From assembly GCF_900100485.1 (NCBI RefSeq), contig NZ_FNDH01000001.1:41681-73680 (forward strand): a stretch of DNA of 32,000 bases. The letters run 5' to 3'. Of this stretch, positions 2,834 to 24,309 are shown piece by piece (position 1 is the first letter of the stretch; the number at the start of each line of letters is the position of its first letter). The notes beneath the pieces are model-generated. The model did not search any database and was not told where the DNA came from. It saw nothing but the letters and a program-made list of their open reading frames with translations. A program made the translations under genes and the position numbers. The stretch comes from Nitrosomonas sp. Nm132 (lineage in GTDB: Bacteria > Pseudomonadota > Gammaproteobacteria > Burkholderiales > Nitrosomonadaceae).

Positions 2834-5800
2834 GCTTGAAAACGAATTTGAGTTACTGACCCATCTAAGCGAACTGGCGGGTATCTTGCCAGCCTACACC
2901 GATAACTGGCAGCAGCAGCACCTCACCTCCCCTACCACCCAGCGCATGCTGCTGGCTGCCATGGGGTTCGATGTGTCCACACCGGAAAAAATCGCTGCCG
3001 CCATTAAGGAGCGCGAGTTGCATCCCTGGCGGCGAGCGCTGGAAGCGGTGTCAGTGGTTCGAGAGCAGGCAGCTTGGGTACGGCTGGTCACACAGGACAC
3101 TTCCGCTGATGAAGAGTGGGAATGGCGTCTGGATCTGGAAGACGGTGGCAACCTGAGTGGCCAGTTTCAACCGCAAACCCTGCCGCAAATTGGAGCCAGG
3201 AAAATCAATGGTATAGTGCATACTGCCTGGCAGCTCGCGATGCCCGGACGCCTTGCGCCGGGCTATCATCGCCTGACACTATCGCGTGCCGGTAAGCCCT
3301 GTGCAGAGCAGACCTTCATCGTTGTCCCCGCTACCTGTTATCAGCCTGAAGCCATCACTCATTCCGGCCGCATCTGGGGGCCAGCCGTGCAACTGTACGC
3401 AGTGCGGTCCGAGCGTAATTGGGGAATGGGCGACTTTACCGATCTGCGGCTATTGCTGGAGCAATGGGCAGCACAGGGCGCGGATATCATCGGCGTCAAC
3501 CCGATGCACGCCTTGTTTCCGCATAATCCGGAACACGCGAGTCCGTACAGTCCTTCCAGCCGCTTATTTTTCAATATCCTTTATCTCGATGTGGAGGCCA
3601 TCGACGATTTTTACGAATGCGATGCGGCGCGCGCCATATTACGCACGCCCGAGTTTCAGATCCGGCTGGAAGGATTACGGGCGACCGAGATGGTCGATTA
3701 CGCGGGTGTCGCCGCGCTCAAGCTGCCCATGCTGGAAATGCTGTACCGCCATTTCTGTGAGCGGCACCTGGCAGCGGATAGCGAGCGTGCCGCTGTATTT
3801 CGCGCCTTTCAGACGCGTGAGGGTGAACGGCTGTACCGCCATACTCTATTCGAGGCACTACAAGAGTATTTCCATAATCAGGATCCCAATGCATGGGGTT
3901 GGCCGGTCTGGCCAAAGGCCTACCGCCATCCTGAAGCAGCAGAAGTACATGAATTTGAGGCCCAACATCGAGATCGCGTCGAATTTTTTGCTTACCTGCA
4001 ATGGCAGGCTGACTTACAGCTTGCTGCCGTGGGATGGCGCTCACTGGAATTGGGACTCGGTGCAGGTCTCTATCTCGATCTGTCGGTCTCGGTCGATGGC
4101 GGCGGTGCAGAAGCTTGGGCCAATCAGGCGCTTTATGCCATTGGTGTGGGAGTAGGCGCGCCACCAGAGCTCGGCAACCAGCTCGGCCAGGACTGGGGGT
4201 TGCCGCCATTCGTACCGGATCGCCTGCGTGAGGCAGCCTATGCGCCTTTCATTGCCACGCTGCGGCATAATATGCGACACGCAGGCGCATTGCGTCTCGA
4301 TCATGTCATGGGATTGATGCGTCAATACTGGGTGCCTGCTGGCGTATCACCTACTGAAGGCGCTTATGTGCGTTACCCTTTCGAGGATCTGCTCGGGATT
4401 CTGGCGCTGGAAAGCCAGCGTAACCAGTGCCTGGTTATCGGCGAAGATCTGGGAACCGTGCCGGAGGAAGTACAGGCTGCCTTACCGCCCTTAGGCATCC
4501 TCTCGTATCGTTTGCTGATAATGGAAAAAGAAGCAACGGGCAGCTTCACTGCGCCAGAGAACTATTCCGCCCAAGCGCTTGCGGCAGTGACCACGCATGA
4601 TTTACCGACGCTGCCAGGCTACTGGCAAGGACACGATATCATCCAGCGTACGGCGCTCCGACTATTCAGCTCCGATGAGGCTCGCCGGACTCAGGTGGTC
4701 ATGCGCTCCCAGGAACGCGCTTATCTCTTGCTGATGCTGGAGCAGACCGGATTGTTGCCGGAAGGGCTGACGGTTGATCCAGTGTCACTGCCAGTCGCCA
4801 CACCGGAATTGATCCAGGCGGTCTATAGCTATCTGGCCCGCAGCCCAGCTCGGGTCCTGATGGTGCAAATCGAGGATATACTGGATGTACTGGATCAAGT
4901 CAATATTCCCTCCACCACCACGCAGCATCCCAATTGGCGACGTAAGCTCCCTATCAATCTCGAAGCCTGTGCGGCTGACCGCCGGGTACTCGCGCTGGCT
5001 GCAGCCATGCGGCAAGAGCGTCCTCGCACCCGTACTGCGCCCGTGCTGAAACGGCGCTTACGCATTCCCCTTGCCACTTACCGCTTGCAGCTCAACCGTA
5101 ACTTCACCTTTGCGCAAGCAACGCAGCTGGTACCTTATCTGGCAGCACTGGGCATCAGCCATGCCTATTGCTCGAGTTACCTCAAGGCGCGTCCCGGCAG
5201 CAGCCATGGCTACGATATCGTCGACCACAACGCGCTCAATCCGGAGATTGGCACCCAGGAAGAATTCGAAGCTTTTTGTACCACATTGCATGCGCATGGT
5301 ATGGGGCAAATCCTGGATCTGGTACCCAACCACATGGGCGTGATGAGCGCAGACAATCAATGGTGGCTAGATGTGCTGGAAAGTGGTCCCGCCTCGGTTT
5401 ATGCGCCTTTTTTTGATATCGACTGGCAGCCTCTCAAAGAAGGGTTGCGTGGCAAGGTGCTGTTACCCATCCTGGGACGATCCTATGGCGACACCTTGGA
5501 AGATGGCGAATTAAAACTCAACTTTGACGAGGCGTGCGGGAGCTTCAGTGTATGGTATTACCAGCACCGCCTGCCCATCGCCCCACGCGAATATCCCCGC
5601 CTGTTGCGGCATCGCCTATCCCTGCTGGAAGCGCAACTGCGGCCGGATGACCCGGATTTGCAGGGACTCGCCAGTCTGATTACGGCGTTTGATCATCTGC
5701 CGCCACAGGAGGCGACCACGCCCGATAAGGTCCTGGAGCGGCACCGCGACCAGGAGTTGCTCAAACGGCGCCTCGCGGCATTGGCTGGTATTTCCCCGTC

Positions 5801-7946
5801 CATCAGACAGACCGTGCTGGATACGGTCAACGACTACAACGGTAGTCCTGGCGATCCCGGTTCTTTTGCTTTGCTGCATGAGCTGCTTGAAGCTCAGCCC
5901 TGGCGCGTGGCTAACTGGCGCGTGGCTTCCGATGAAATCAATTACCGCCGCTTTTTTGACATCAATGATCTCGCTGCCCTGCGCGTGGAAGACAATCATG
6001 TCTTTGAAGCTACCCATCAGCTGGTACTGAAATGGGTTGCCGAGGGTAAAGTGGATGGCTTGCGCATTGACCATCCGGATGGGTTATATGATCCCACGCA
6101 GTATTTTCAGCGGCTGCAGGAGCGCGTGGCGATGCGCTCCCCTTCAATGGAAGGAGAAAAAGCCATTTATATCGTGGCAGAAAAAATCCTCGCCAGCCAT
6201 GAACCATTACGCGAGGATTGGGCCATCCATGGCACTACCGGCTATGACTTTTGCAATCTGGTCAATAGTCTGTTCGTTGATCTCCACGCGAGAACAACGC
6301 TGGAGCGCACCTATCGCTCGTTTACTCACGCCCGGCCCGATTTTGAAGAACTCGTTTACCGCAGCAAGCACCAGATCATGAAATATAGCATGGCCAGCGA
6401 ACTGAACGTCATGGCGGGACAATTAAGCCGAATTTGCGAATTGCGGCCGCATACGCGTGACTTTACCACCAGTAACCTGCGTCATGCCCTTGCCGAAGTA
6501 ATCGCTCGGCTGCCTGTCTACCGTACTTACGTGCGCGACAGCCAGGTTTCTGTACTTGATCGCCGCTATGTAGAATGGGCTGTGGCTCAGTCCAAGAAAT
6601 TCACCCAGGTGCTGGATATCAGCATTTTCGATTTTCTTGGCTCTGTGCTCCTGCTGGACGCCGCGGCCGATAGAGACCCGCCCTATGCCGCCGCGATTAC
6701 TGCATTTGCCATGAAGTTCCAGCAGCTTTCCGGCCCGGTGATGGCCAAAGGCTACGAAGATACCGCGTTCTATCTGTACCATCGCCTGATTTCCCTGGAC
6801 GAGGTAGGCGGCGACCCTCGCCTCTTCGGCATTTCGGTAAAAGCCTTCCATGCCGAGAATGCCAAGCGGCTGGAACGCTGGCCTTATTCCATGCTCAATA
6901 CCTCCACGCATGACAGCAAACGCAGCGAAGACGTGCGTGCGCGCATCAATGTATTGTCTGAAATGCCCAGTCATTGGCATCAGCAGGCGTTGCGTTGGCG
7001 ACGGCTCAACCGAAGCAAGAAATTGCTGCTTGATCGCGAGGAAATCCCCAGCGCCAATGACGAATACCTGATTTACCAAACCTTGATTGGCATCTGGCCG
7101 TTCACGGAGCTGATTGCAGAAGAGCATGAAGCCTTGCTGGCACGCATTGAGGCGTATCTGCTCAAAGCAGTGCGCGAAGCCAAACAGCACACCAGTTGGA
7201 TCAATCCGCGCATGTCCTATGAAGAGGGTCTATCAAGCTTTATCAGGAAGATACTGAATCTATCTGACAAAAACACTTTCCTGGCCGACTTCCTTCCTTT
7301 CCAGCAGCGTGTGGCCTACTGGGGAATGTTCAGCTCGCTCTCACAGACCTTGCTCAAATTGACCGTGCCCGGCGTGCCGGACATCTACCAGGGCAACGAG
7401 CTATGGGATTTCAGCCTGGTGGACCCGGACAACCGCCGCCCGGTGAACTACGCTCAGCGCCAGCAGTTGCTGAAGGAACTGGAAGCATCTGTAGCCGTTC
7501 CTCAAGATGCGCTGGCCAAGCAAGTCCGGCAACTGCTCGATGACATGACGGATGGACGCGCCAAGCTGTATTTGACGTGGCGCTTGCTGCATAGCCGCAA
7601 GCGATGGCCCAATGTTTTCCAGGACGGCGCCTACCTGCCGCTCATGACGGCAGGATCACGGAAAGATCATCTGTGCGCCTTCGCCCGCCAGGCAGACGAG
7701 ATTACTCTGGTAATTGTCGCACCACGCTGGTTTTCACGGCTGATACCCGCAGCGTCAGGTCAACTGCCTTTGGGCAACACCGTGTGGGGCACCACAACGG
7801 TTGAAGTGCCTAATCTTGCTGCAGGAATGCGGGGGGTGAATGTACTGACAGGGGAAATCGTGGAAGTAACTCAAACAAATGACATCCCTACGCTGGCCGC
7901 TGCAACGCTATTCATTTCATTTCCGGTCGCTTTACTGCAATTCTGA
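2826..7946 (+). CDS. malQ-treY: fused 4-alpha-glucanotransferase (GH77, residues ~1-735) / malto-oligosyltrehalose synthase (GH13, residues ~748-1706)
   Basis: Single uninterrupted 1706-aa ORF. The N-half has MalQ-type motifs (WGMGDFTDL, GVNPMHALFP, SPYSPSSRLF, LRLDHVMGL, IGEDLGTVP, THDLPTL, HPNWRRKL). From ~nt 5061 it reads LATYRLQLNRNFTF...GISHAYCSSYLKARPGSSHGYDIVDH...LDLVPNHMGV...GLRIDHPDGL...TSTHDSKRSEDVRARI, typical of TreY. There is an 8-bp overlap with the treZ stop. Confidence 0.85.
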   Translation: MSKLENEFELLTHLSELAGILPAYTDNWQQQHLTSPTTQRMLLAAMGFDVSTPEKIAAAIKERELHPWRRALEAVSVVREQAAWVRLVTQDTSADEEWEWRLDLEDGGNLSGQFQPQTLPQIGARKINGIVHTAWQLAMPGRLAPGYHRLTLSRAGKPCAEQTFIVVPATCYQPEAITHSGRIWGPAVQLYAVRSERNWGMGDFTDLRLLLEQWAAQGADIIGVNPMHALFPHNPEHASPYSPSSRLFFNILYLDVEAIDDFYECDAARAILRTPEFQIRLEGLRATEMVDYAGVAALKLPMLEMLYRHFCERHLAADSERAAVFRAFQTREGERLYRHTLFEALQEYFHNQDPNAWGWPVWPKAYRHPEAAEVHEFEAQHRDRVEFFAYLQWQADLQLAAVGWRSLELGLGAGLYLDLSVSVDGGGAEAWANQALYAIGVGVGAPPELGNQLGQDWGLPPFVPDRLREAAYAPFIATLRHNMRHAGALRLDHVMGLMRQYWVPAGVSPTEGAYVRYPFEDLLGILALESQRNQCLVIGEDLGTVPEEVQAALPPLGILSYRLLIMEKEATGSFTAPENYSAQALAAVTTHDLPTLPGYWQGHDIIQRTALRLFSSDEARRTQVVMRSQERAYLLLMLEQTGLLPEGLTVDPVSLPVATPELIQAVYSYLARSPARVLMVQIEDILDVLDQVNIPSTTTQHPNWRRKLPINLEACAADRRVLALAAAMRQERPRTRTAPVLKRRLRIPLATYRLQLNRNFTFAQATQLVPYLAALGISHAYCSSYLKARPGSSHGYDIVDHNALNPEIGTQEEFEAFCTTLHAHGMGQILDLVPNHMGVMSADNQWWLDVLESGPASVYAPFFDIDWQPLKEGLRGKVLLPILGRSYGDTLEDGELKLNFDEACGSFSVWYYQHRLPIAPREYPRLLRHRLSLLEAQLRPDDPDLQGLASLITAFDHLPPQEATTPDKVLERHRDQELLKRRLAALAGISPSIRQTVLDTVNDYNGSPGDPGSFALLHELLEAQPWRVANWRVASDEINYRRFFDINDLAALRVEDNHVFEATHQLVLKWVAEGKVDGLRIDHPDGLYDPTQYFQRLQERVAMRSPSMEGEKAIYIVAEKILASHEPLREDWAIHGTTGYDFCNLVNSLFVDLHARTTLERTYRSFTHARPDFEELVYRSKHQIMKYSMASELNVMAGQLSRICELRPHTRDFTTSNLRHALAEVIARLPVYRTYVRDSQVSVLDRRYVEWAVAQSKKFTQVLDISIFDFLGSVLLLDAAADRDPPYAAAITAFAMKFQQLSGPVMAKGYEDTAFYLYHRLISLDEVGGDPRLFGISVKAFHAENAKRLERWPYSMLNTSTHDSKRSEDVRARINVLSEMPSHWHQQALRWRRLNRSKKLLLDREEIPSANDEYLIYQTLIGIWPFTELIAEEHEALLARIEAYLLKAVREAKQHTSWINPRMSYEEGLSSFIRKILNLSDKNTFLADFLPFQQRVAYWGMFSSLSQTLLKLTVPGVPDIYQGNELWDFSLVDPDNRRPVNYAQRQQLLKELEASVAVPQDALAKQVRQLLDDMTDGRAKLYLTWRLLHSRKRWPNVFQDGAYLPLMTAGSRKDHLCAFARQADEITLVIVAPRWFSRLIPAASGQLPLGNTVWGTTTVEVPNLAAGMRGVNVLTGEIVEVTQTNDIPTLAAATLFISFPVALLQF

Positions 7947-7993
7947 CCTTAAAGAAATTGAGTTCTGGATGGGTCATTATTCCGGGAAGAGGG

Positions 7994-8065
7994 GTCGCGA
8001 ATCAAGAAAAATAAGAACGGTCACTGAGGTTATTGTTCACCCGAATAAGAATTCATGATTCTGGT
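7994..8065 (+). repeat. ~70-bp intergenic direct repeat, copy A
   Basis: gtcgcgaatcaagaaaaataa...ggttattgttcacc.gaataagaattcatgat.ct.gt recurs at 9468-9536 in the same orientation. The match is roughly 85% by eye with a 3-bp indel. Contains a small AATAAC/GTTATT hairpin. Confidence 0.8.
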
Positions 8066-8138: not shown

Positions 8139-9275
8139 CTAGAATCTATATGTGTAACGCAAAAAAGAATCGAGATCCTGACGTTTTTGTAATGAGCTCG
8201 TATGCTGTCGGATATCCTCGCTATAGCGCATGCGGACTTCGATGGTTTGGTTTTTATCGATAACCCATTTATAGCGTACCTCGGCCACATAGGCATTATC
8301 ATTAAAGGATGGCGTCAGCAGCCAGCCATCCCCGATACGAGCGAGCGCAAATCCAAGACTATGCTGTGGAACGATATCGATAAAATTGAAAGTGACTTGG
8401 GCCGCGAGTCCATCGGCATTACCCGACGCGCCCGTTCTTATTGTGCTGCGTTTTGGCACATTCGGCGCGTACCCTAATTCCCCCCCAAGCATGAAATTTA
8501 GGCTGCCTCTTATTGGCCACTGCGCTGCCAAACGTCCGACCACGGCCCAGTAATCGGTGACGATACCAGAGCCTACCCCTTCGCTGTGCAGAGCACTCGG
8601 CAACCAGTTAATATCCACCGTACGCTGAACAATTGGGCCGGCTTTCTGGGTATTTTCAACGCTTGCAAAATAAGACACCCGGCTGCCATCTTCGCTGAAA
8701 TCAAGAGGCGCACTGCGCGGCTGTGTTGCACCTTGAGCATAATTGTACTGGGCAATCGCCGTCGTGTTCCAGCCATTCTCAGCCTTGTATTTGATTTGCA
8801 CGCCATCAGTCCAGGTGATATTGGTGAATGCGCTGTCTTCACGATCCAGTGATTTTTCGGCTACCCCTTTCAGTAGGGCTTTACTCTGGAAGCGGCCTAC
8901 GAGAATTTCCCAGACATCGGCGGGGCGGTATTCAACATAAATCTCGTCGAAAGTGGAATCACCCTGACGTAACCCATCCTGTGTAGGGATGTTGTCAAAA
9001 ATCTTGAAGTGCAAATTGCTGTCACGGGTGGAATAACGTCCTGCGAAACGTACCTGCATCCGCCATTGCTCATTAAATTTCGCACCAATCCCGACGCGAG
9101 GGCGAAATCGAAGTTCGTGGGTTGATTCTTCTTTACTATTGCGGTCATCGCGCTCGCGCGAGAAAAAACTAGCACGCACATCACCATTAAGTGAAAATTC
9201 CACAGCGGAAGCTGGAGTAATCGAATGCAGGCATACTCCACAGAGCATGAGAGTCGTCCATTTCCTAAATAACAC
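8139..9275 (-). CDS. outer-membrane beta-barrel (porin-like) protein
   Basis: 378-aa ORF with signal peptide MLFRKWTTLMLCGVCLHSITPASA|VEF. Alternating amphipathic strands throughout. C-terminal YTYRF (terminal Phe) is typical of OMP beta-barrels. No specific family assigned. Confidence 0.6.
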   Translation of the reverse strand: MLFRKWTTLMLCGVCLHSITPASAVEFSLNGDVRASFFSRERDDRNSKEESTHELRFRPRVGIGAKFNEQWRMQVRFAGRYSTRDSNLHFKIFDNIPTQDGLRQGDSTFDEIYVEYRPADVWEILVGRFQSKALLKGVAEKSLDREDSAFTNITWTDGVQIKYKAENGWNTTAIAQYNYAQGATQPRSAPLDFSEDGSRVSYFASVENTQKAGPIVQRTVDINWLPSALHSEGVGSGIVTDYWAVVGRLAAQWPIRGSLNFMLGGELGYAPNVPKRSTIRTGASGNADGLAAQVTFNFIDIVPQHSLGFALARIGDGWLLTPSFNDNAYVAEVRYKWVIDKNQTIEVRMRYSEDIRQHTSSLQKRQDLDSFLRYTYRF

Positions 9276-9467
9276 AGAATAACTTCTAAAACCATAATAA
9301 GTTATAAAAAATTCTGTTGGCCTCCCAATGCTGCTCTTGCCAACGATCTTTCAGCCCGAAGCTTACCGTTCACTAATCACAGAATCTTCTTGAGAATAGC
9401 AGATTAAGGCTTCCTCTGTAGTGTCCTGACTGCTTCAGAGGTGGTTAGCGCACGAAAGGGATCAAGT

Positions 9468-9536
9468 GTCGCGAATCAAGAAAAATAACGGCAACTGGGG
9501 TTATTGTTCACCAGAATAAGAATTCATGATCCTAGT
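9468..9536 (+). repeat. ~70-bp intergenic direct repeat, copy B
   Basis: Same-orientation copy of 7994-8065. It lies between the OMP start and the TIR gene stop. Confidence 0.8.
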
Positions 9537-9563
9537 CCAGGTTATGGTCTTAATCATAACAAT

Positions 9564-10640
9564 CTACTGCCTTTGCCCGCTATACGCCACTTCACCATTC
9601 GGGTTGTAGTCTAAACGTGGCGGGTTCTTTTCCAGCTCTAGCAACAGCAGCGTTGTACTGCCACCTACACTTTGGATCGTATTACCTACCCTCGTAAGAT
9701 CTATTTCAACAGTGCCCAATCTCTCATAATCTGAGGTGATCCTGACTTTTCGTTTGTTCACCTTGGCAATCGTCACGGTCACATCGGATCTCGAGCTGCC
9801 TTTCGAATCGGAGATGACATCGCCATAATAAATGCCCGCAACCAGATCAGCCAATTCAACCGGCTTTCTCGCCTCCCTGGAAATGGGCTGTTGAGTTAAG
9901 GGCTGCTCTCTAGCTGCCGGAAGTTTTGGCCCGAGTTCGGAGGAAGAGGAACTCGAACCAGGTATCGGCTTGGACGGTCCGTCGGCAGTAGGTGCAGGCG
10001 GTTCTCCTGTCTCAGCTATTAGCGTCGGCGACGATTGAGAGAGACTACGGTTTGTGGTTGGTGAATAGTCGAACAGAAGTGAAGAAAAAAGGACAACCAC
10101 AGCGAGTCCACCTGCTAGCCAGTAGAGCATAGATTTACGAGTGCGAAGATCCTGCTTACCACTTGATGTATTCGATTCACCAAGTGCCTTGCTAACAGCC
10201 TCCAGCAGTCTCTCCATGTCCGATTTGAAGCGGCTGTTGCTCACCTCAAGAGCGTTCCGCCGCGCAAGCGCGCGAAGAGGTTCCGGCAATGCCTCTTCGG
10301 CTGGCATGCTCGCTCCATCAAGTAGCACGGGGATCACGCGAATGTTTCGCGATAGTGCAGCAGCGATCTCAAGACGCACGAAGTCTTTCGGGTCGTTGAT
10401 GCGTAGACCTGCGCCCGCTTGCTGTTCCATCCAGCGCCTGCCGATCATCGCCAGAAGAATCTCACATTGGCCCACAGCGCGCTCGATGGCTTCATCAAAC
10501 GGGAAACCCGGCTCGATCGCATCCACATCCATAAAAATTCGCTCCCTGGAAAAATGCTGAACGAGCTGGTCGTAGATAGCGCGCGCGTAGCCTGCCGAGT
10601 CATCCCGGCGATAGCTAATAAAGATATGTCCGTTGCTCAT
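9564..10640 (-). CDS. TIR domain protein with one transmembrane helix and a C-terminal extracytoplasmic domain
   Basis: The N-terminus HIFISYRRDDSAGYARAIYDQL...IFMDVDAIEPGFPFDEAIERAV..CEILLAMIG..W......DFVRLEIAAAL..N.RVIPVLL fits the bacterial TIR_2 pattern. TM helix MLYWLAGGLAVVVLFSSLLF, then a Pro/Ser-rich linker and a ~100-aa beta-rich tail. ATG at 10640 is preferred over the listed GTG at 10658. Confidence 0.8.
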   Translation of the reverse strand: MSNGHIFISYRRDDSAGYARAIYDQLVQHFSRERIFMDVDAIEPGFPFDEAIERAVGQCEILLAMIGRRWMEQQAGAGLRINDPKDFVRLEIAAALSRNIRVIPVLLDGASMPAEEALPEPLRALARRNALEVSNSRFKSDMERLLEAVSKALGESNTSSGKQDLRTRKSMLYWLAGGLAVVVLFSSLLFDYSPTTNRSLSQSSPTLIAETGEPPAPTADGPSKPIPGSSSSSSELGPKLPAAREQPLTQQPISREARKPVELADLVAGIYYGDVISDSKGSSRSDVTVTIAKVNKRKVRITSDYERLGTVEIDLTRVGNTIQSVGGSTTLLLLELEKNPPRLDYNPNGEVAYSGQRQ

Positions 10641-10695
10641 CGATGTTCCATCCCACACCCTTATGCTTCCTGAATGCCATGATCTTGCTCGGTAT

Positions 10696-10755
10696 ACCTA
10701 ACGCTGGAGTTAAGCCGCCGCGCGTAGCGCGGTCGGCTTGAACGACTTGTTATGT
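10696..10755 (-). other. attC recombination site (cassette 2, 60 bp)
   Basis: Minus strand: ACATAAC AAGTC GTTCAAGCC GACCGCGCTACGCGCGGC GGCTTAAC TCCAGC GTTAGGT. R''=ACATAAC overlaps the ORF stop. L''/L' pair with one unpaired C. The central stem is GC-rich. R'=GTTAGGT fits GTTRRRY exactly. Confidence 0.85.
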
Positions 10756-11295
10756 GTTTGTTGCCCGTTGAATCAACCTGGATAGTCGTAATTTAATTTT
10801 GAACTTTTGTTTATCTAGAACCCACTTAAAAAAGCTTTTTTCGCTTTCTATTGGTCCATCAAGTGTATACAAATTACAACTTGAACCGTAGTTGAGTTTA
10901 AATTGGTACTTTCGGTATTTGGAAAAGTAGTACGTTGCCCCCACCGGACCTTTTGCTAAAAACTCTCTTGCCTCATGGGGTTTCAAAGCAAGATCATTGC
11001 CCATAATCTGCATGCTTACCTTTAACGGCAATCCATCTCTTGTTAGAGATACCACAGTAACAACCCCATCAAGAGAAGTTATCTTAGATCCTACATTGGT
11101 ACATTTAAACTTAAGTTCAGCACCAAAATTATTATCTGGATCATATGTTTGCTTAACCAGCACCGTATGTAGTCTTACTCTGGAAGTCCATTTTTCATAC
11201 CAGAAATAAATTCCACCCGTGCCTCCAATAAGATACAGAATCTTTAAAGGGTCATTAAAAAAATAGTCAATGACTTTGTAAATTAATTCTGTCAC
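10750..11295 (-). CDS. integron cassette ORF, hypothetical membrane-anchored protein (181 aa)
   Basis: GTG start preceded by GAGGAG. N-terminal hydrophobic helix LKILYLIGGTGGIYFWY, then a beta-rich domain. AT-rich. Bounded by attC sites on both sides. No family recognised. Confidence 0.6.
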   Translation of the reverse strand: MTELIYKVIDYFFNDPLKILYLIGGTGGIYFWYEKWTSRVRLHTVLVKQTYDPDNNFGAELKFKCTNVGSKITSLDGVVTVVSLTRDGLPLKVSMQIMGNDLALKPHEAREFLAKGPVGATYYFSKYRKYQFKLNYGSSCNLYTLDGPIESEKSFFKWVLDKQKFKIKLRLSRLIQRATNT

Positions 11296-11310
11296 TCAGA
11301 CTCCTCAAAC

Positions 11311-11373
11311 ACATAACGTTTTGGGTAACAGGCGCAACGACAGGAGCGTCCTAGTTGACCCAATTGTTATAAC
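11311..11373 (-). other. attC recombination site (cassette 1, 63 bp)
   Basis: Minus strand: GTTATAAC AA TTGGGTCAAC TAGGACGCTCCTGTCGTTGCGCCT GTTACCCAA AAC GTTATGT. ATAAC/GTTAT and TTGGGT(C)AAC/GTTACCCAA pair with an unpaired C, and the central stem has bulges. It starts directly after the ORF stop TAG. Confidence 0.75.
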
Positions 11374-12786
11374 CTACATTGGTAATTTCCAATCTGAAGC
11401 GTACTTTCTATACTCTGGCGCTTCTGTTTTTGGTGGCACATAGTGCTCATCATCTATTACAAAATTAGCAGCCATTAGGTCTCTCACTCCACCCAATCTC
11501 TCTGTTGAGGTGAGCTCTGATGCGATATCTTTGAAAAGTGTTGAGAAATTACCAGATTGATTATTGGCAATGAAATCAGGCAAAGGGATTTTGAAATCGA
11601 ATTCTGGAAATTGCGGAAGGCCTTTTAATGCTGCAACTGAATTATATACTTTCATTAAAAAGCTTCCCTGAATCCCTTGATCAGTTTTAAGGCCATATTT
11701 TGATCTTAATTCATGTTCTGCTTTCTTGAGCTGCTTCTCCCATTTTTGGATTGATTTATTAGCCTGTGTAATTCCACCCTCATCAAACCCAATTCGTATT
11801 TCCCTTAGAAGCCCTCTTACATCCTGCAAGCATTGCTCGTTTTTTATTTCAAGAGCCGAAGATATTATGTTTCGAGCATCACCGGACTGAACTGATAACC
11901 AAGCAGAAAATATTGGAATATCTAGTGAAACAGCTGTAGATCTTCCAGCGTCAATAATTTCACCTACCGAAGTTAATAGCTTATTCGATAAAGAACCTAC
12001 TAATTTTGCCGTAAAATCGTGACCAAATGCGCCCGTCTTTTTAAACCAATGAATTTGATAAGCATGTCTAATAGGATGAAGAAAAGTATCAGCTTTTAAA
12101 TAATTGGCTGCTAAGCTGTAATAAATCGACTTATAAGCAAGCCAATTTAGTGATGCGATAAACATATCCAGGGCACGAGTTGTACCACCATGACCTCGCC
12201 TAGCTGATTTTGCTTCTTCAGCCATTCTCTCTTTCGTGAGTTCTGTTCCATCTGAACCAATAAGTTTAATATCTGTTGACCAAACACCGAATGTATCGCC
12301 AGCATCCGAAAGTTCATTGTAGATAGCTGAACTCAGTTCGCTGTATTTTTCATACTCCAGTGTATTTGGTTGACCAAGCATTTTCAAGGTTAAATAATAA
12401 ACGCTCGAACGCAAATCCCAAGTACAAATCATATTTAGCTTAAGTAATCCAAGTAATTCCCGGAAATCTAGGTCCACAAATTCACCTGCGCGAATTTCGG
12501 GCCGGATTAATTTTGCTTCTGATTTTGCTTTTTCTGAAAAATTGTCTAACTGATAGTCTTCTGGTGATATGAACTTTATAAAATCGAATTCTTTTTTTCT
12601 TTCTTCCTTCTGCTCTTCTTTGTAATTATCAATGCAAACAAGCTCGTCATAAAAAAGGATCGCTTGAACGAAGTTTTCTAACGCTACAAGATCACCGTTT
12701 ATAGTATCGGGGTTTTTAACGACAATCTGACCCATGACCCTTTGCACAGCTGTAAGTGAGGCATTGTCAATCAGTGCATATGTCAT
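11374..12786 (-). CDS. integron cassette ORF, hypothetical protein (470 aa)
   Basis: Long AT-rich ORF with an AGGAAA RBS-like element 6-7 nt upstream of the ATG. It lies between the attI region and attC 1. No motif I can assign to a family. Confidence 0.65.
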   Translation of the reverse strand: MTYALIDNASLTAVQRVMGQIVVKNPDTINGDLVALENFVQAILFYDELVCIDNYKEEQKEERKKEFDFIKFISPEDYQLDNFSEKAKSEAKLIRPEIRAGEFVDLDFRELLGLLKLNMICTWDLRSSVYYLTLKMLGQPNTLEYEKYSELSSAIYNELSDAGDTFGVWSTDIKLIGSDGTELTKERMAEEAKSARRGHGGTTRALDMFIASLNWLAYKSIYYSLAANYLKADTFLHPIRHAYQIHWFKKTGAFGHDFTAKLVGSLSNKLLTSVGEIIDAGRSTAVSLDIPIFSAWLSVQSGDARNIISSALEIKNEQCLQDVRGLLREIRIGFDEGGITQANKSIQKWEKQLKKAEHELRSKYGLKTDQGIQGSFLMKVYNSVAALKGLPQFPEFDFKIPLPDFIANNQSGNFSTLFKDIASELTSTERLGGVRDLMAANFVIDDEHYVPPKTEAPEYRKYASDWKLPM

Positions 12787-12813
12787 CGGTGTTTCCTGTG
12801 GTTATAACTAGAA

Positions 12814-12876
12814 TTAGAACTCCGAAATGACGCAATACATCACGTCAAAAATGACATCTAACACGGCAAGCTGCAT
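12814..12876 (-). CDS. candidate 20-codon leader ORF in the attI region (MQLAVLDVIFDVMYCVISEF)
   Basis: Minus strand AGAAGGAGATAGC-ATG, a strong SD with 5-nt spacing. The ORF reads through the GTTAGAT core candidate and stops 27 nt before the cassette-1 ATG. Too short for the ORF track. Confidence 0.3.
   Translation of the reverse strand: MQLAVLDVIFDVMYCVISEF
12856..12862 (-). other. candidate attI/cassette crossover core (GTTAGAT)
   Basis: This is the only perfect GTTRRRY heptamer on the cassette strand between intI and cassette 1. A second, class-1-like context CTAACAAAG|TTTGTTA lies nearer intI (~12925-12941), so the assignment is uncertain. Confidence 0.3.
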
Positions 12877-12949
12877 GCTATCTCCTTCTGTTTTATAGAA
12901 TTACGCCGAATGAGCTTTCATCATAACAAACTTTGTTAGATCCACAAAT

Positions 12950-13273
12950 ATGACGAACAAGTCCCGGCTTTTGGACCAGATGCGGGATAAACTCAGGCTC
13001 AAGCATTACAGCTATCGCACGGAGCAATCTGATATTGCCTGGATAAAACGTTTCATTTTCTTTTACAACAAGCAGCACCCCGATACGATGGGAGAAAGGG
13101 AAGTTGAATCGTTTCTGATTTATCTCGCAGTTAAACGAAATATTGCTGCATCCACACAGAATCAGGCGCTGTGCGCGCTGCTATTTTATATAAGGAGGTA
13201 TCAGGCTGTGAATACACACAAAGTCTTGCATTGTCACCCAACAGACAAAGCCTATCCCCACTCTATTGCTTGA
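12950..13273 (+). pseudogene. intI: integron integrase remnant (N-terminal ~80 codons only)
   Basis: LLDQMRDKLRLKHYSYRTEQSDIAWIKRFIFFYNKQHPDTMGEREVESFLIYLAVKRNIAASTQNQALCALLF matches the IntI N-terminal SAM-like domain pattern. After ~nt 13200 the reading frame is unrelated, and no catalytic domain appears in any frame before amoC. Confidence 0.75.
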
Positions 13274-13321
13274 AGATTCTTCCGTCTTTGCCTGGACATT
13301 ATTTGGCTGCCCCTTTGTAAA

Positions 13322-13356
13322 CAAAAAACCCATCCCCTTATTAAAAGAGGATGGGT
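13322..13356 (-). terminator. rho-independent terminator of amoC
   Basis: Minus strand ACCCATCC-TCTTTTAATAAG-GGGATGGGT followed by TTTTTTGTTT, about 28 nt downstream of the amoC stop. Confidence 0.7.
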
Positions 13357-13383
13357 AGATGCAATACTCGTTACAACCTGGAT

Positions 13384-14205
13384 TTAAACAACATCATCCA
13401 GAATCGCTCGGCTTTGTTCGTTCCATTGCACATCCAGGAGGTTGGAAAAGCGTGCAATGACCTGGATGACAACGCCCCCAGAGAACAAAGCGGCCCATGC
13501 CAGTATCACGAAGCCCCAATGTAGCGGTGCGCTAAAGAGTTCCTCCATGAACCAGAAGGCATGGCCCCATTCATTCAAACCAACGTTCGGGAGGCTCATC
13601 AGCGGACCGGCAATAGACATCACCAAAGGAAACGAGGTTCCCTTGTTGTACAGTGGCAATCGCGTCCTTGCATATAGGAAAGTTGATACGCCTATGATGA
13701 TGTACATCGGGAACGAGCCGTAAAATAGCGGAATGTGGCTGGGCGTGAAACTGGTGTCGCGAATGATCACCTGATGCCAGGAAGCATCCTGTTCAGTGAA
13801 GAAACTCGAACCCCAATAGACAGCAAACATGTACACCCCTAACCACATCATGAAATAAAAATACCGCTTAATTTCCATTTTCACCGGCAGGTTCGCCAGT
13901 TGTTCCTGGGTATCGCGTGTTTTCCATACCCAACCCCAGACCGTCAGCGCCAAGATCGGCCAGAGTGTCATTTGGAAACGCCATAGGCCCATCCAGATTT
14001 GATCGAACTCCGGTTCCATGGAGTCCATCCCATGGGAGTAGGCGTAGGTCCGCTGAAACCAGACCCAGAAAATTGCTATTCCCAGTATGGGTAGAAGACC
14101 CAGCTTGTAAAACCTGGAATCATACCATTCCGACATGTCATAGGCAGGACTGCCTGCCTTCGCTGCTTTATCTACCGATCTGTTTCCAAGTGCAGGAATA
14201 CTCAT
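13384..14205 (-). CDS. amoC: ammonia monooxygenase subunit C, singleton copy (amoC3-like; no amoA/amoB downstream)
   Basis: The 273-aa translation is near-colinear with Nitrosomonas AmoC as I recall it ([82 protein letters not shown]). GAGGAG RBS. A terminator follows rather than amoAB. Confidence 0.95.
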
Positions 14206-18130: not shown

Positions 18131-18219
18131 AACCTGTCCACATTTTCAATTCTTCTACCAAGGAAGCCTCTGATAATCTCTCGCTTCGCGGTTCGTTCAG
18201 AGGCTCAGAGGCTTTCTAG

Positions 18220-18381
18220 CCCGAATATTTCATAAATTCGCGTGATGATCACGCAGGATTTTGATTAGTCGGGAAGTTTTGAGAAGGAAGGGTCTAGTGA
18301 TTCATACACCCGACTGAGCAAAATCTTTCTTATTAATCAAAAGACAAGTGAGGACACGTGCCAATTTATGAAATATTCGGG
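18220..18381 (+). mobile_element. 162-bp MITE, copy 1
   Basis: 19-bp perfect terminal inverted repeats CCCGAATATTTCATAAATT / AATTTATGAAATATTCGGG. Internal palindrome GCGTGATGATCACGC. No ORF. Flanked by CTAG on both sides. Confidence 0.85.
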
Positions 18382-18514
18382 CTAGTGTAGCGTCTCTCAA
18401 ATGACTGAGTCATCGTTAGCATAATCGTTTGGATTGGACTCGATCAATCTAGCCTCTAGTAAAACCACGCTGGTTTTCTCGGCTGATACGAAAAAATCAA
18501 ACGCGAGTATAGAA

Positions 18515-19234: not shown

Positions 19235-19659
19235 GCGATGACACAGTAGATTTTTCACGATGATCGATAGTGAAACGATTTTTCTTTTGAACATAAGTAT
19301 CAGTGTGACTCCATTGGAAACGCATGGTTTAGGCAGGCTGTTCAAAAAAGATTTAATCTGTGGCTCACGCGCCAAGGCGCTCAAGGCTGCGCCTCCTGGC
19401 AACGCTTCTCGGAGTACTGCATAGACTGGCCGCTTCGAGTCTCGGCATAGGATCATGCAACGTGAGTCCGGCGGAGGTCTTGATATTGATTCTGATCAGC
19501 GCCGCACGGCCGTGCTTGAGAAGCTCCAACCCAGCTACATTCGCAGTAGGGAAATACAAACACCCTTTGCCTACTAGCAGGAATGTACCGAGGATCACCC
19601 ATATTGTCAAACATCCTAAGGAATGATCTAAAAAAGGAATTTTGCCTCACTCATATTAA

Positions 19660-19821
19660 CCCGAATATTTCATAAATTGGCACGTGCCCTCACTTGCCTT
19701 TTGATTAATAAGAAAGATTTTGCTCAGTCGGGCGTATGAATCACTACACCCCTCTTTCTCAAAACTTCCCTATTAATCAAAATCCTGCGTGATCATCACG
19801 CGAATTTATGAAATATTCGGG
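19660..19821 (-). mobile_element. 162-bp MITE, copy 2 (inverted relative to copies 1 and 3)
   Basis: Same TIRs and internal sequence in reverse orientation. Flanked by TTAA on both sides. Confidence 0.85.
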
Positions 19822-20115
19822 TTAAAAAGTACTCTGATGACTCTGGTACATTCAAGCGAATAACGACCAAGGGAAAGAGCCAGCTCAGAAAGGAAAGACG
19901 AAGACAGTGCGTCACCACACAATGAGTCAACGGGATCAAACGCTGAAGTATTTCCACGAATAGATAGTTAACTATCAATCCGTCAGGATTATTTTTAACC
20001 CAAGGGAACCTCCAGGATAACTTGCAAAGGCACTGCCAGGATAATTCGCAGCAAGAGCTTACATTTGACAGATTCCACCAAGCTTGACCCTTTTGATTCC
20101 AGGCTGATGCGGCTT

Positions 20116-24014: not shown

Positions 24015-24176
24015 CCCGAATATTTCATAAATTCGCGTGATGATCACGCAGGATTTTGATTAATAGGGAAGTTTTGAAAAGGAGGGGTATAGTGATTCAT
24101 ACACCCGACTGAGCAAAATCTTTCTTATTAATCAAAAGGCAAGTGAAGACACGTGCCAATTTATGAAATATTCGGG
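24015..24176 (+). mobile_element. 162-bp MITE, copy 3
   Basis: Same TIRs and internal sequence as copy 1, in the same orientation. The flanks (TTGG / CTAG) do not match each other. Confidence 0.85.
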
Positions 24177-24309
24177 CTAGCACTGTTAAACTGATTGCGC
24201 CGATAACGATGAGGAGATTGACTGGCAATATTACTGGGGAAATTGATTGACATTCAAATAACTTGAGAAACGGCCAGGAATGGCTCGTCAAGCCCCTCCA
24301 ATGACAGGA

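Follow-up and report, generated by a model that had tools for sequence, protein, structure and literature searches.

A chromosomal integron of the Nitrosomonas communis lineage with a destroyed integrase gene and cassettes probably exchanged in trans

When the integrase gene of a chromosomal integron is lost, does the cassette array beside it freeze, or can it still be rearranged by an integrase encoded elsewhere? The question is raised by a locus at positions 10696–13273 of a 32,000-nt stretch of the genome of Nitrosomonas sp. Nm132 (contig NZ_FNDH01000001.1, positions 41,681–73,680, hereafter the window, to which all coordinates refer). The source is a bacterium of the Nitrosomonas communis lineage: over 8764–14030 it has 97.8% identity to L004, a metagenome-assembled genome (MAG) that bears the label N. 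communis, and the isolate Nitrosomonas sp. Nm58 (L083; GCA_900107335.1) shows 96.8–97.7% identity to the window across both flanks. We are confident that the region is a chromosomal integron of this lineage in which the integrase gene intI has been destroyed while attI and two attC-bounded cassettes are kept, with cassette turnover in trans likely. One ancestral intI lesion is accompanied by three different cassettes at attI in related strains, from which we infer that recombination probably continued, in trans, after the integrase had died.

The intI remnant

Two features define the integrase end of the locus.

12950–13225 (+): intI pseudogene remnant, corresponding to IntI residues ~1–92; the present open reading frame (ORF), of 107 aa, extends to 13273 (12950–13273, +)
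13216–13383 (no strand): junction DNA of novel sequence, from the intI breakpoint as far as the stop codon of the orphan gene amoC, including the amoC terminator (13356–13328)

The peptide encoded at 12950–13200 (+) had been read from its sequence as the N-terminal part of an integron integrase, and profile searches bear this out. In Pfam the 107-aa ORF carries the N-terminal SAM-like domain PF13495 (E 8e-28), and in NCBIfam it matches TIGR02249 (E 3.8e-24; 85.6 bits against a cutoff of 265, model positions 1–77 of 315) and PRK15417 (E 8e-22). Set against XerC/XerD profiles, as the initial annotation had suggested, the IntI models score about 20 orders of magnitude better than any Xer model: NCBIfam gives no XerC or XerD model at E 0.01, and the sole other match is XerA (E 1.5e-3). 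Intact orthologues of the stump occur in two Nitrosomonas MAGs, encoding IntI proteins of 334 aa (L005) and 325 aa (L006) that score 501 and 495 bits, respectively, on TIGR02249 (cutoff 265), and the DNA of the window at 12804–13200 is 80% identical to the former and 73% to the latter. The stump is thus orthologous to proteins above the curated IntI threshold, making the ancestral gene a member of the TIGR02249 family, and its close homologues bear the name ‘integron integrase’ at both NCBI and JGI.

DNA alignment to the intact intI genes of L005 and L006 locates a 1-nt deletion near 13187, because of which the reading frame departs from IntI after ...ALCALLF. Past the deletion, homology to intact intI is maintained in the +1 frame to ~13215–13225, beyond which the sequence is unrelated. 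The loss of similarity that had been placed near 13200 therefore stands as to its neighbourhood, but resolves into two separate points, a frameshift near 13187 and an end of homology at ~13215. The earlier statement that no catalytic domain precedes amoC can be widened, since a tblastn search with the full-length L005 IntI matches aa 13–101 only, at 12950–13225 (next match E 0.15), and detects no catalytic domain across the 32-kb window; in the stump itself, PF00589 is not found by Pfam. About three quarters of the integrase gene are gone, including the entire catalytic domain, and of the full integrase expected of a complete integron (catalytic domain plus IntI-specific additional domain) only residues ~1–92 are left.

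These searches bear directly on the idea that the integron is split rather than dead, with the 3' part of intI, or a second full copy of the gene, now lying elsewhere in the genome after a rearrangement. Rearrangement by insertion sequences is a documented source of attC-site clusters that have no integron-integrase (CALIN; PMC4889954), and MITE-like repeats (miniature inverted-repeat transposable elements, described below) lie nearby in the window. However, a split gene cannot make an integrase, the stump bears a frameshift and an elevated ratio of nonsynonymous to synonymous substitution rates (dN/dS), and tblastn finds no IntI C-terminal fragment in the 19 kb downstream or the 13 kb upstream; the 20-kb Nm58 locus contains none either. 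We regard this explanation as highly improbable.

The attC sites

On the strand opposite intI, two visibly AT-rich ORFs had been described as each being followed by an attC-like palindrome of 60–63 bp, and they make up the following array.

11317–12807 (−): cassette 1, 1,491 bp, consisting of ORF470 (12786–11374) and attC1 (11372–11311)
11374–12786 (−): ORF470, the gene of cassette 1
10702–11316 (−): cassette 2, 615 bp, consisting of ORF181 (11295–10750) and attC2 (10755–10696)
10750–11295 (−): ORF181, the gene of cassette 2

The palindromes were examined using a covariance model, R1, built from 22 attC sites of arrays beside integron integrases, taken from other phyla and from L005 and L006, with no sites from the window or its species in the training set. 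Its structure pairs R'' with R' and L'' with L' in two helices and leaves two single bases bulged out; 91.9% of its cells are paired, 15 of 21 pairs show changes on both sides, and none of 500 shuffles reaches the observed covariation. Searched with filters off on both strands of the 32 kb, R1 places only two sites below E 0.4, namely attC2 at 10696–10755 (−; 59.1 bits, E 5e-13) and attC1 at 11311–11372 (−; 36.5 bits, E 3e-7), their start positions 617 bp apart, and the next best match scores 12.7 bits (E 0.41). Both palindromes are thus recovered in the orientation predicted for them, and the model is orientation-specific, as the + strand of attC2 scores 9.2 bits versus 59.1 on the − strand. 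R1 also finds attC sites in arrays on which it was not trained, among them those of N. halophila, of Vibrio vulnificus and of a contig (L106) discussed below. Rfam holds no usable attC family, and gave no window matches at gathering threshold and chance-level ones only at E<10. Scans combining a regular expression with a hairpin requirement were dropped, the strict form having missed both sites and the permissive form having returned dozens of false matches.

The details of the two sites agree with this assignment. Their bottom (+) strands, which the initial annotation had singled out for folding, both form DNA hairpins with bulges on the 3' arm and folding z-scores of −3.4 (attC2) and −3.15 (attC1). 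On the + strand the bulges of attC2 are T 10733 and G 10740, six base pairs apart, and those of attC1 are G 11357 plus two more. The R'' sequences are TTATAAC (attC1) and ACATAAC (attC2); as for the GTTRRRY-type 3' core that had been noted, the R' core of attC2 (GTTAGGT) fits perfectly and that of attC1 (GTTATGT) is one position off. attC2 measures 60 nt and attC1, with its end corrected to 11372, 62 nt. A sequence with 96.4% identity to attC2 over 55–56 nt occurs in 4,791 plasmid records, among them pCTX-M3, where it is the attC between aadA2 and qacEdelta1. In a second match (pABWA45) it is the attC of a different cassette, the class 1 integron there having a TniQ-family gene at its flank; relative to this match one stem pair is swapped from C-G to G-C, a compensatory change that keeps the pairing. 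No match to attC1 was found in the plasmid collection.

It might be supposed that none of this is an integron, that the palindromes are terminators or REP-like (repetitive extragenic palindromic) elements and the peptide what is left of a tyrosine recombinase of phage or Xer type. PF13495 does occur in non-integron recombinases too, and both palindromes sit at terminator-like positions. Yet R1 distinguishes the strands (attC2 scores 59 bits on − and 9 bits on +), attC2 hardly differs from the attC of aadA2, another array contains cassette 1 with its boundaries at GTT, and IntI models beat every Xer model for a stump orthologous to intact integron integrases. The probability that we attach to this explanation is negligible, and in what follows the locus is treated as an integron.

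The cassettes and their cargo

Both cassettes are compositionally foreign and promoterless, their ORFs being indeed AT-rich as had been remarked (36.1% GC for ORF181 and 37.9% for ORF470, versus 50.1% for the whole window). The ORFs are packed tightly against the attC that follows them: ORF181 terminates within R'', and a GAGGAG precedes its GTG start. An independent delimitation of cassette 1 comes from the unrelated array L106 (GCA_964487805.1), where a homologue of ORF470 with 90% identity is followed by an attC that departs from attC1 at 3 of 62 positions. Homology between the two arrays begins at GTT/ATAACCAC and ends at AACGTT/, and cassette 1 lies between two other attC sites in L106 and between attI and cassette 2 in the window. 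Cassette 1 therefore recurs as a mobile unit with G/TT boundaries, while cassette 2 has known relatives for its attC only.

More distant homologues of ORF470 (59–67% identical) are also found in cassette contexts. In a V. vulnificus chromosomal array (L103) an attC lies directly upstream of the homologue and the next attC follows the adjacent ABM gene, and on a metagenome contig (L090) the homologue has an attC-like site to either side, both of them weaker. ORF470 matches phrog_13435 (E 3e-188) and belongs to a conserved family of ~470 aa that is patchily distributed over Vibrio, Shewanella, E. coli, Salmonella, Dickeya, Aeromonas and others. No match to it was obtained in Pfam, NCBIfam or PADLOC, none in the phage genome collection and no significant one among PDB sequences (best E 0.027), and its AlphaFold model (mean predicted local distance difference test score, pLDDT, of 61) has no fold match in PDB or BFVD. 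ORF181 falls into a small unnamed family with 97 cluster representatives and has no match in the plasmid collection; it is only the attC2 site, not ORF181, that is common to the window and the plasmid cassette pools.

The L106 array (3715–7472) also contains a Shedu-like (SduA_C) gene and an IS3-family insertion, and has a 124-aa Phage_integrase fragment beside it; this array may likewise be a decayed integron, one with defence genes. Together with the TIR-domain gene that neighbours the array in the window, the Shedu-like gene hints weakly at phage defence as the function of the cargo.

The attI region

Between the intI remnant and cassette 1 lie three further elements.

12804–12811 (−): attI core CTAGTTAT, crossover between G 12808 and TT 12807–12806
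12814–12887 (−): Shine–Dalgarno sequence (AAGGAG, 12887–12882) and leader ORF within attI, 20 codons at 12876–12814, MQLAVLDVIFDVMYCVISEF followed by a stop
12920–12947 (−): candidate Pc-like promoter, TTGTGG (12947–12942), a 16-nt spacer and TGT-TATGAT (−10 at 12925–12920, extended −10)

An alignment of the intI-proximal non-coding DNA of the window, Nm58, Nm33, L005 and L006 is conserved up to ...TCTAATTCTAGTT and unrelated directly after, so that the region matches intact Nitrosomonas integrons as far as ...CTAGTT. BLAST homology to Nm58 resumes at 12806, and the L106 copy of cassette 1 begins at the same GTT. Conservation and the boundary of cassette 1 thus identify an attI beside intI, with cassettes inserted at its GTT. 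The resulting layout, with intI divergent from the cassettes, attI between them and an attC after each ORF, is collinear with the intact integrons of L005 and L006, in keeping with the canonical geometry first proposed for the locus.

The candidate promoter faces the cassettes and abuts the intI start codon, and its motif (TTGTGG-16-TGnTATGAT) is near-invariant in the window, Nm58, L003, Nm33, L005 and L006. The leader ORF ends 5 nt short of the GTT crossover, and the region that it occupies holds an inverted repeat, TGACGTGATGTATTGCGTCA (12847–12828). Nm58, Nm33, L005 and L006, integrons at only 70–85% identity, retain its start codon, reading frame and stop, and L098 has lost 24 nt of it without a change of frame. 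In class 1 attI1, the ORF-11 leader is similar. The promoter-like motif and the short leader ORF upstream of attI are probably still used, and the cassettes are probably transcribed from the candidate promoter on the attI side; the leader ORF may act as a translational-coupling leader, or else the conserved stretch may represent integrase-binding sites.

One lesion, different cassettes

The frameshift and the amoC-side junction seen in the window recur in five assemblies (Nm58, L003, L004, L098 and a JGI contig); Nm58 is the genome of an isolate, and two of the others are MAGs. This recurrence excludes an assembly artefact and implies that the lesion arose before these lineages diverged. Compared with Nm58, the stump is 93.6% identical, amoC 98.4%, the MalQ-like gene of the flank 97.0% and attI 97.2%; the genes on the flanks range over 96–98.5%, the stump having diverged faster. 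Its ratio of nonsynonymous to synonymous substitution rates is also raised, at 0.22–1.27 among stumps, whereas most amoC pairs lie at 0.10–0.15 and the two intact intI genes, over the same codons, at 0.064.

Downstream of the common lesion the cassettes differ. ORF470 followed by ORF181 is found at attI in the window, in L004 and in the JGI contig, but the attI of Nm58 is followed by an unrelated GC-rich ORF184 and that of L098 by a third unrelated ORF. In every lineage homology breaks at the attI GTT, with a second break, at the R' core of the last attC, in Nm58. As argued at the outset, a single ancestral lesion combined with three different attI cassettes makes exchange after the loss of the integrase likely, and on these alignments site-specific recombination probably did continue after intI death with an integrase acting in trans. 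The initial annotation had reasoned that an array of this kind would need an integrase supplied in trans; the reasoning is sound, and the difference in cassettes among strains sharing one lesion lends it indirect support.

That a live and a dead integron can reside together in this genus is demonstrated by N. halophila. The genome GCA_900107165.1 contains an intact integron (L100; 320-aa IntI, at least 5 attC sites and toxin–antitoxin cassettes) as well as a second array (L102) with a 120-aa truncated intI stump and four attC sites. A second N. halophila strain (L099) has an identical IntI and different first cassettes. Independently inactivated intI copies are present in Nm33, Nm166 and N. 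halophila.

We picture the history of the locus as follows. Insertion of the cassettes would have been the work of IntI, recombining attI with attC in the form of its folded bottom strand. A 1-nt frameshift and the loss of everything past ~codon 92 removed the catalytic domain of intI, the truncating event joining the intI breakpoint to DNA downstream of the orphan amoC, and the locus would thereby be unable to recombine its own cassettes. Since the lesion, cassettes have most likely been gained and lost by way of a trans-acting integrase, provided by a second integron in the genome or by an incoming mobile integron. That cassettes are inserted and excised at the orphan attI and its array in the N. 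communis lineage to this day, by an integrase encoded elsewhere, is a proposition to which we assign roughly even chances.

Several points limit this picture or weigh against it. The dN/dS values of the stump rest on 7–27 substitutions in 79 codons. The attC model is purpose-built from only 22 sites, and its calibration is only rough. A generic promoter scan did not include the motif at 12920–12947, and the scan as a whole showed no excess over shuffles; no LexA box was found between intI and attI. The attC of the Nm58 cassette is internally deleted (R1 16 bits, E 0.14), a state that resembles decay rather than activity. None of the 120 best IntI homologues is named N. communis or Nm58, although this is not evidence of absence.

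In an alternative reading the array has been static since intI died, and the cassette differences could stem from homologous array replacement between strains, an older polymorphism having been reshuffled by homologous recombination (e.g., by transformation), with crossovers in the ~400-bp attI–stump region and in the distal flank. The degraded attC of Nm58 and the lack, by lineage name, of a trans-acting integrase among the best 120 IntI homologues both favour it, as does the precedent of Xanthomonas, where strains with a common intI lesion usually have identical arrays (Gillings et al., as summarised in bioRxiv 10.1101/2025.06.18.660453). On the other hand, three attI-proximal cassettes would call for several independent replacements, each of them keeping the identical lesion, and the donors would have carried an intact intI next to attI. 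Moreover, breaks falling exactly at the attI GTT and at the R' of the last attC are what site-specific, not homologous, recombination would be expected to leave. A static array thus seems to us rather unlikely, and we continue to favour exchange by an integrase in trans.

Flanking DNA and neighbouring features

The integron is embedded in the following gene order, given along the + strand.

MalQ-like gene, 1706 aa: first in the order
8139–9275 (−): porin-like ORF
9564–10658 (−): TIR-domain gene, probable start 10640, PF13676 TIR_2 (E 8e-13), weak ThsB-like matches
9564–10695 (−): distal array boundary and TIR gene, Nm58 homology resuming at the R' core of the last attC
ORF181, ORF470 and the intI remnant, as listed above
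13384–14205 (−): orphan amoC, PF04896 (E 1e-131)
TetR-family gene: beyond amoC

Past the GTTAGGT core of attC2, the window at 10638–10704 aligns to Nm58 at 94%, leading into the TIR gene. In Nm58 this gene survives only as remnants, being largely deleted, and the porin-like gene is missing. The TIR gene was considered as a third cassette and rejected, since R1 finds no attC downstream of it and its GC content (53%) is near the window average (50%); it is accordingly treated as flanking DNA and is probably not a cassette. No ThsA-like partner was found near it.

An 82-bp direct repeat (7984–8065 and 9458–9536, 85–87% identical) brackets the porin-like ORF, such that one copy comes after the TIR gene and the other after the porin-like gene. 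The repeat is confined to the lineage of the window and no further copies were seen. The notion that these repeats represent a native attC family was discarded, as they have no covariance-model match, no attC-like fold and no other copies. On the other side of the integron, amoC has neither amoA nor amoB beside it, and its end lies 168 bp from the intI breakpoint.

Further along, the window contains three copies of a MITE-like element of ~168 bp, at 18217–18384 (+), 19656–19825 (−) and 24015–24183 (+). The element has 23-bp perfect terminal inverted repeats (GCCCGAATATTTCATAAATT...), a mean column identity of 91% and a DNA fold of −44 kcal/mol (z = −10). Copies are also present in Nm58 and L003, and recent mobility of the element is only a possibility.

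Comparison with known systems

Decayed integrons are common, so that the element as such is ordinary: about one third of intI genes are pseudogenes (PMC2426708), and CALIN outnumber complete integrons (PMC4889954). As defined by Cury et al. 2016, a CALIN combines two or more attC sites lying within 4 kb with the lack of a nearby integron-integrase detected by the intI_Cterm and PF00589 profiles (PMC4889954). The present locus has two attC sites ~0.6 kb apart, well within that distance (as located by R1), unknown non-resistance cassettes, no integrase catalytic domain and neither PF00589 nor C-terminal integrase homology in the window, and the label first given to it, CALIN-like with a pseudo-intI, is the right one. 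Unlike most CALIN, it keeps the N-terminal ~92 codons of intI and an intact attI, and it is a decayed complete integron, not a secondary-site insertion. The pseudogene screen of IntegronFinder demands coverage of more than 50% for the intI_Cterm and PF00589 profiles, and a recognisable intI pseudogene was found, via the C-terminal profile, in only 15 of 279 CALIN (PMC4889954). Having no C-terminal integrase sequence, the stump would be missed by this screen, and IntegronFinder would report the element as a CALIN. Tools keyed to the C-terminus thus label such loci integrase-less despite a diagnostic N-terminal stump and an intact attI.

Within the genus, an integron platform is known from N. 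europaea; its integrase IntINeu, intact and active where the present one is a stump, has reportedly been shown to excise and integrate cassettes.

One of the two attC sites has a counterpart in a clinical cassette. The aadA2 attC, classed as ‘Xanthomonadales-type’ by Ghaly et al. 2021 (PMC8352920), shares with attC2 the 60-nt length, the bulged T and G and the GTTAGGT/GTTAGAT core; attC2 differs in context, being attached to an unrelated AT-rich 181-aa ORF in a chromosomal array and not in a mobile integron. An attC near-identical to that of clinical aadA2 is thereby found in an ammonia oxidiser common in wastewater and soil, a likeness that links the environmental cassette pool to the class 1 integron pool.

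A close parallel is that of Xanthomonas integrons with an inactivated intI, which like the present one occupy a fixed chromosomal locus, carry a frameshift and a large deletion, keep attI and cassettes of unknown function, and have their lesion in common among related strains. The host here differs, being an ammonia-oxidising betaproteobacterium in which the breakpoint abuts an orphan amoC. In Xanthomonas, strains with a shared intI lesion are described as usually sharing identical arrays (Gillings et al. 2005; bioRxiv 10.1101/2025.06.18.660453), in contrast to the one lesion and three attI-proximal cassettes found here. While the type of decay is known, what is new is the comparative evidence for cassette turnover at attI after integrase loss. 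Comparison of strains in this way amounts to a natural test of trans cassette exchange beside dead integrases, which bears on the share of the cassette metagenome that is still mobile. Should the array indeed be serviced in trans, it would constitute natural evidence that pseudo-integrons and CALIN stay evolutionarily active, unlike the frozen arrays of Xanthomonas.

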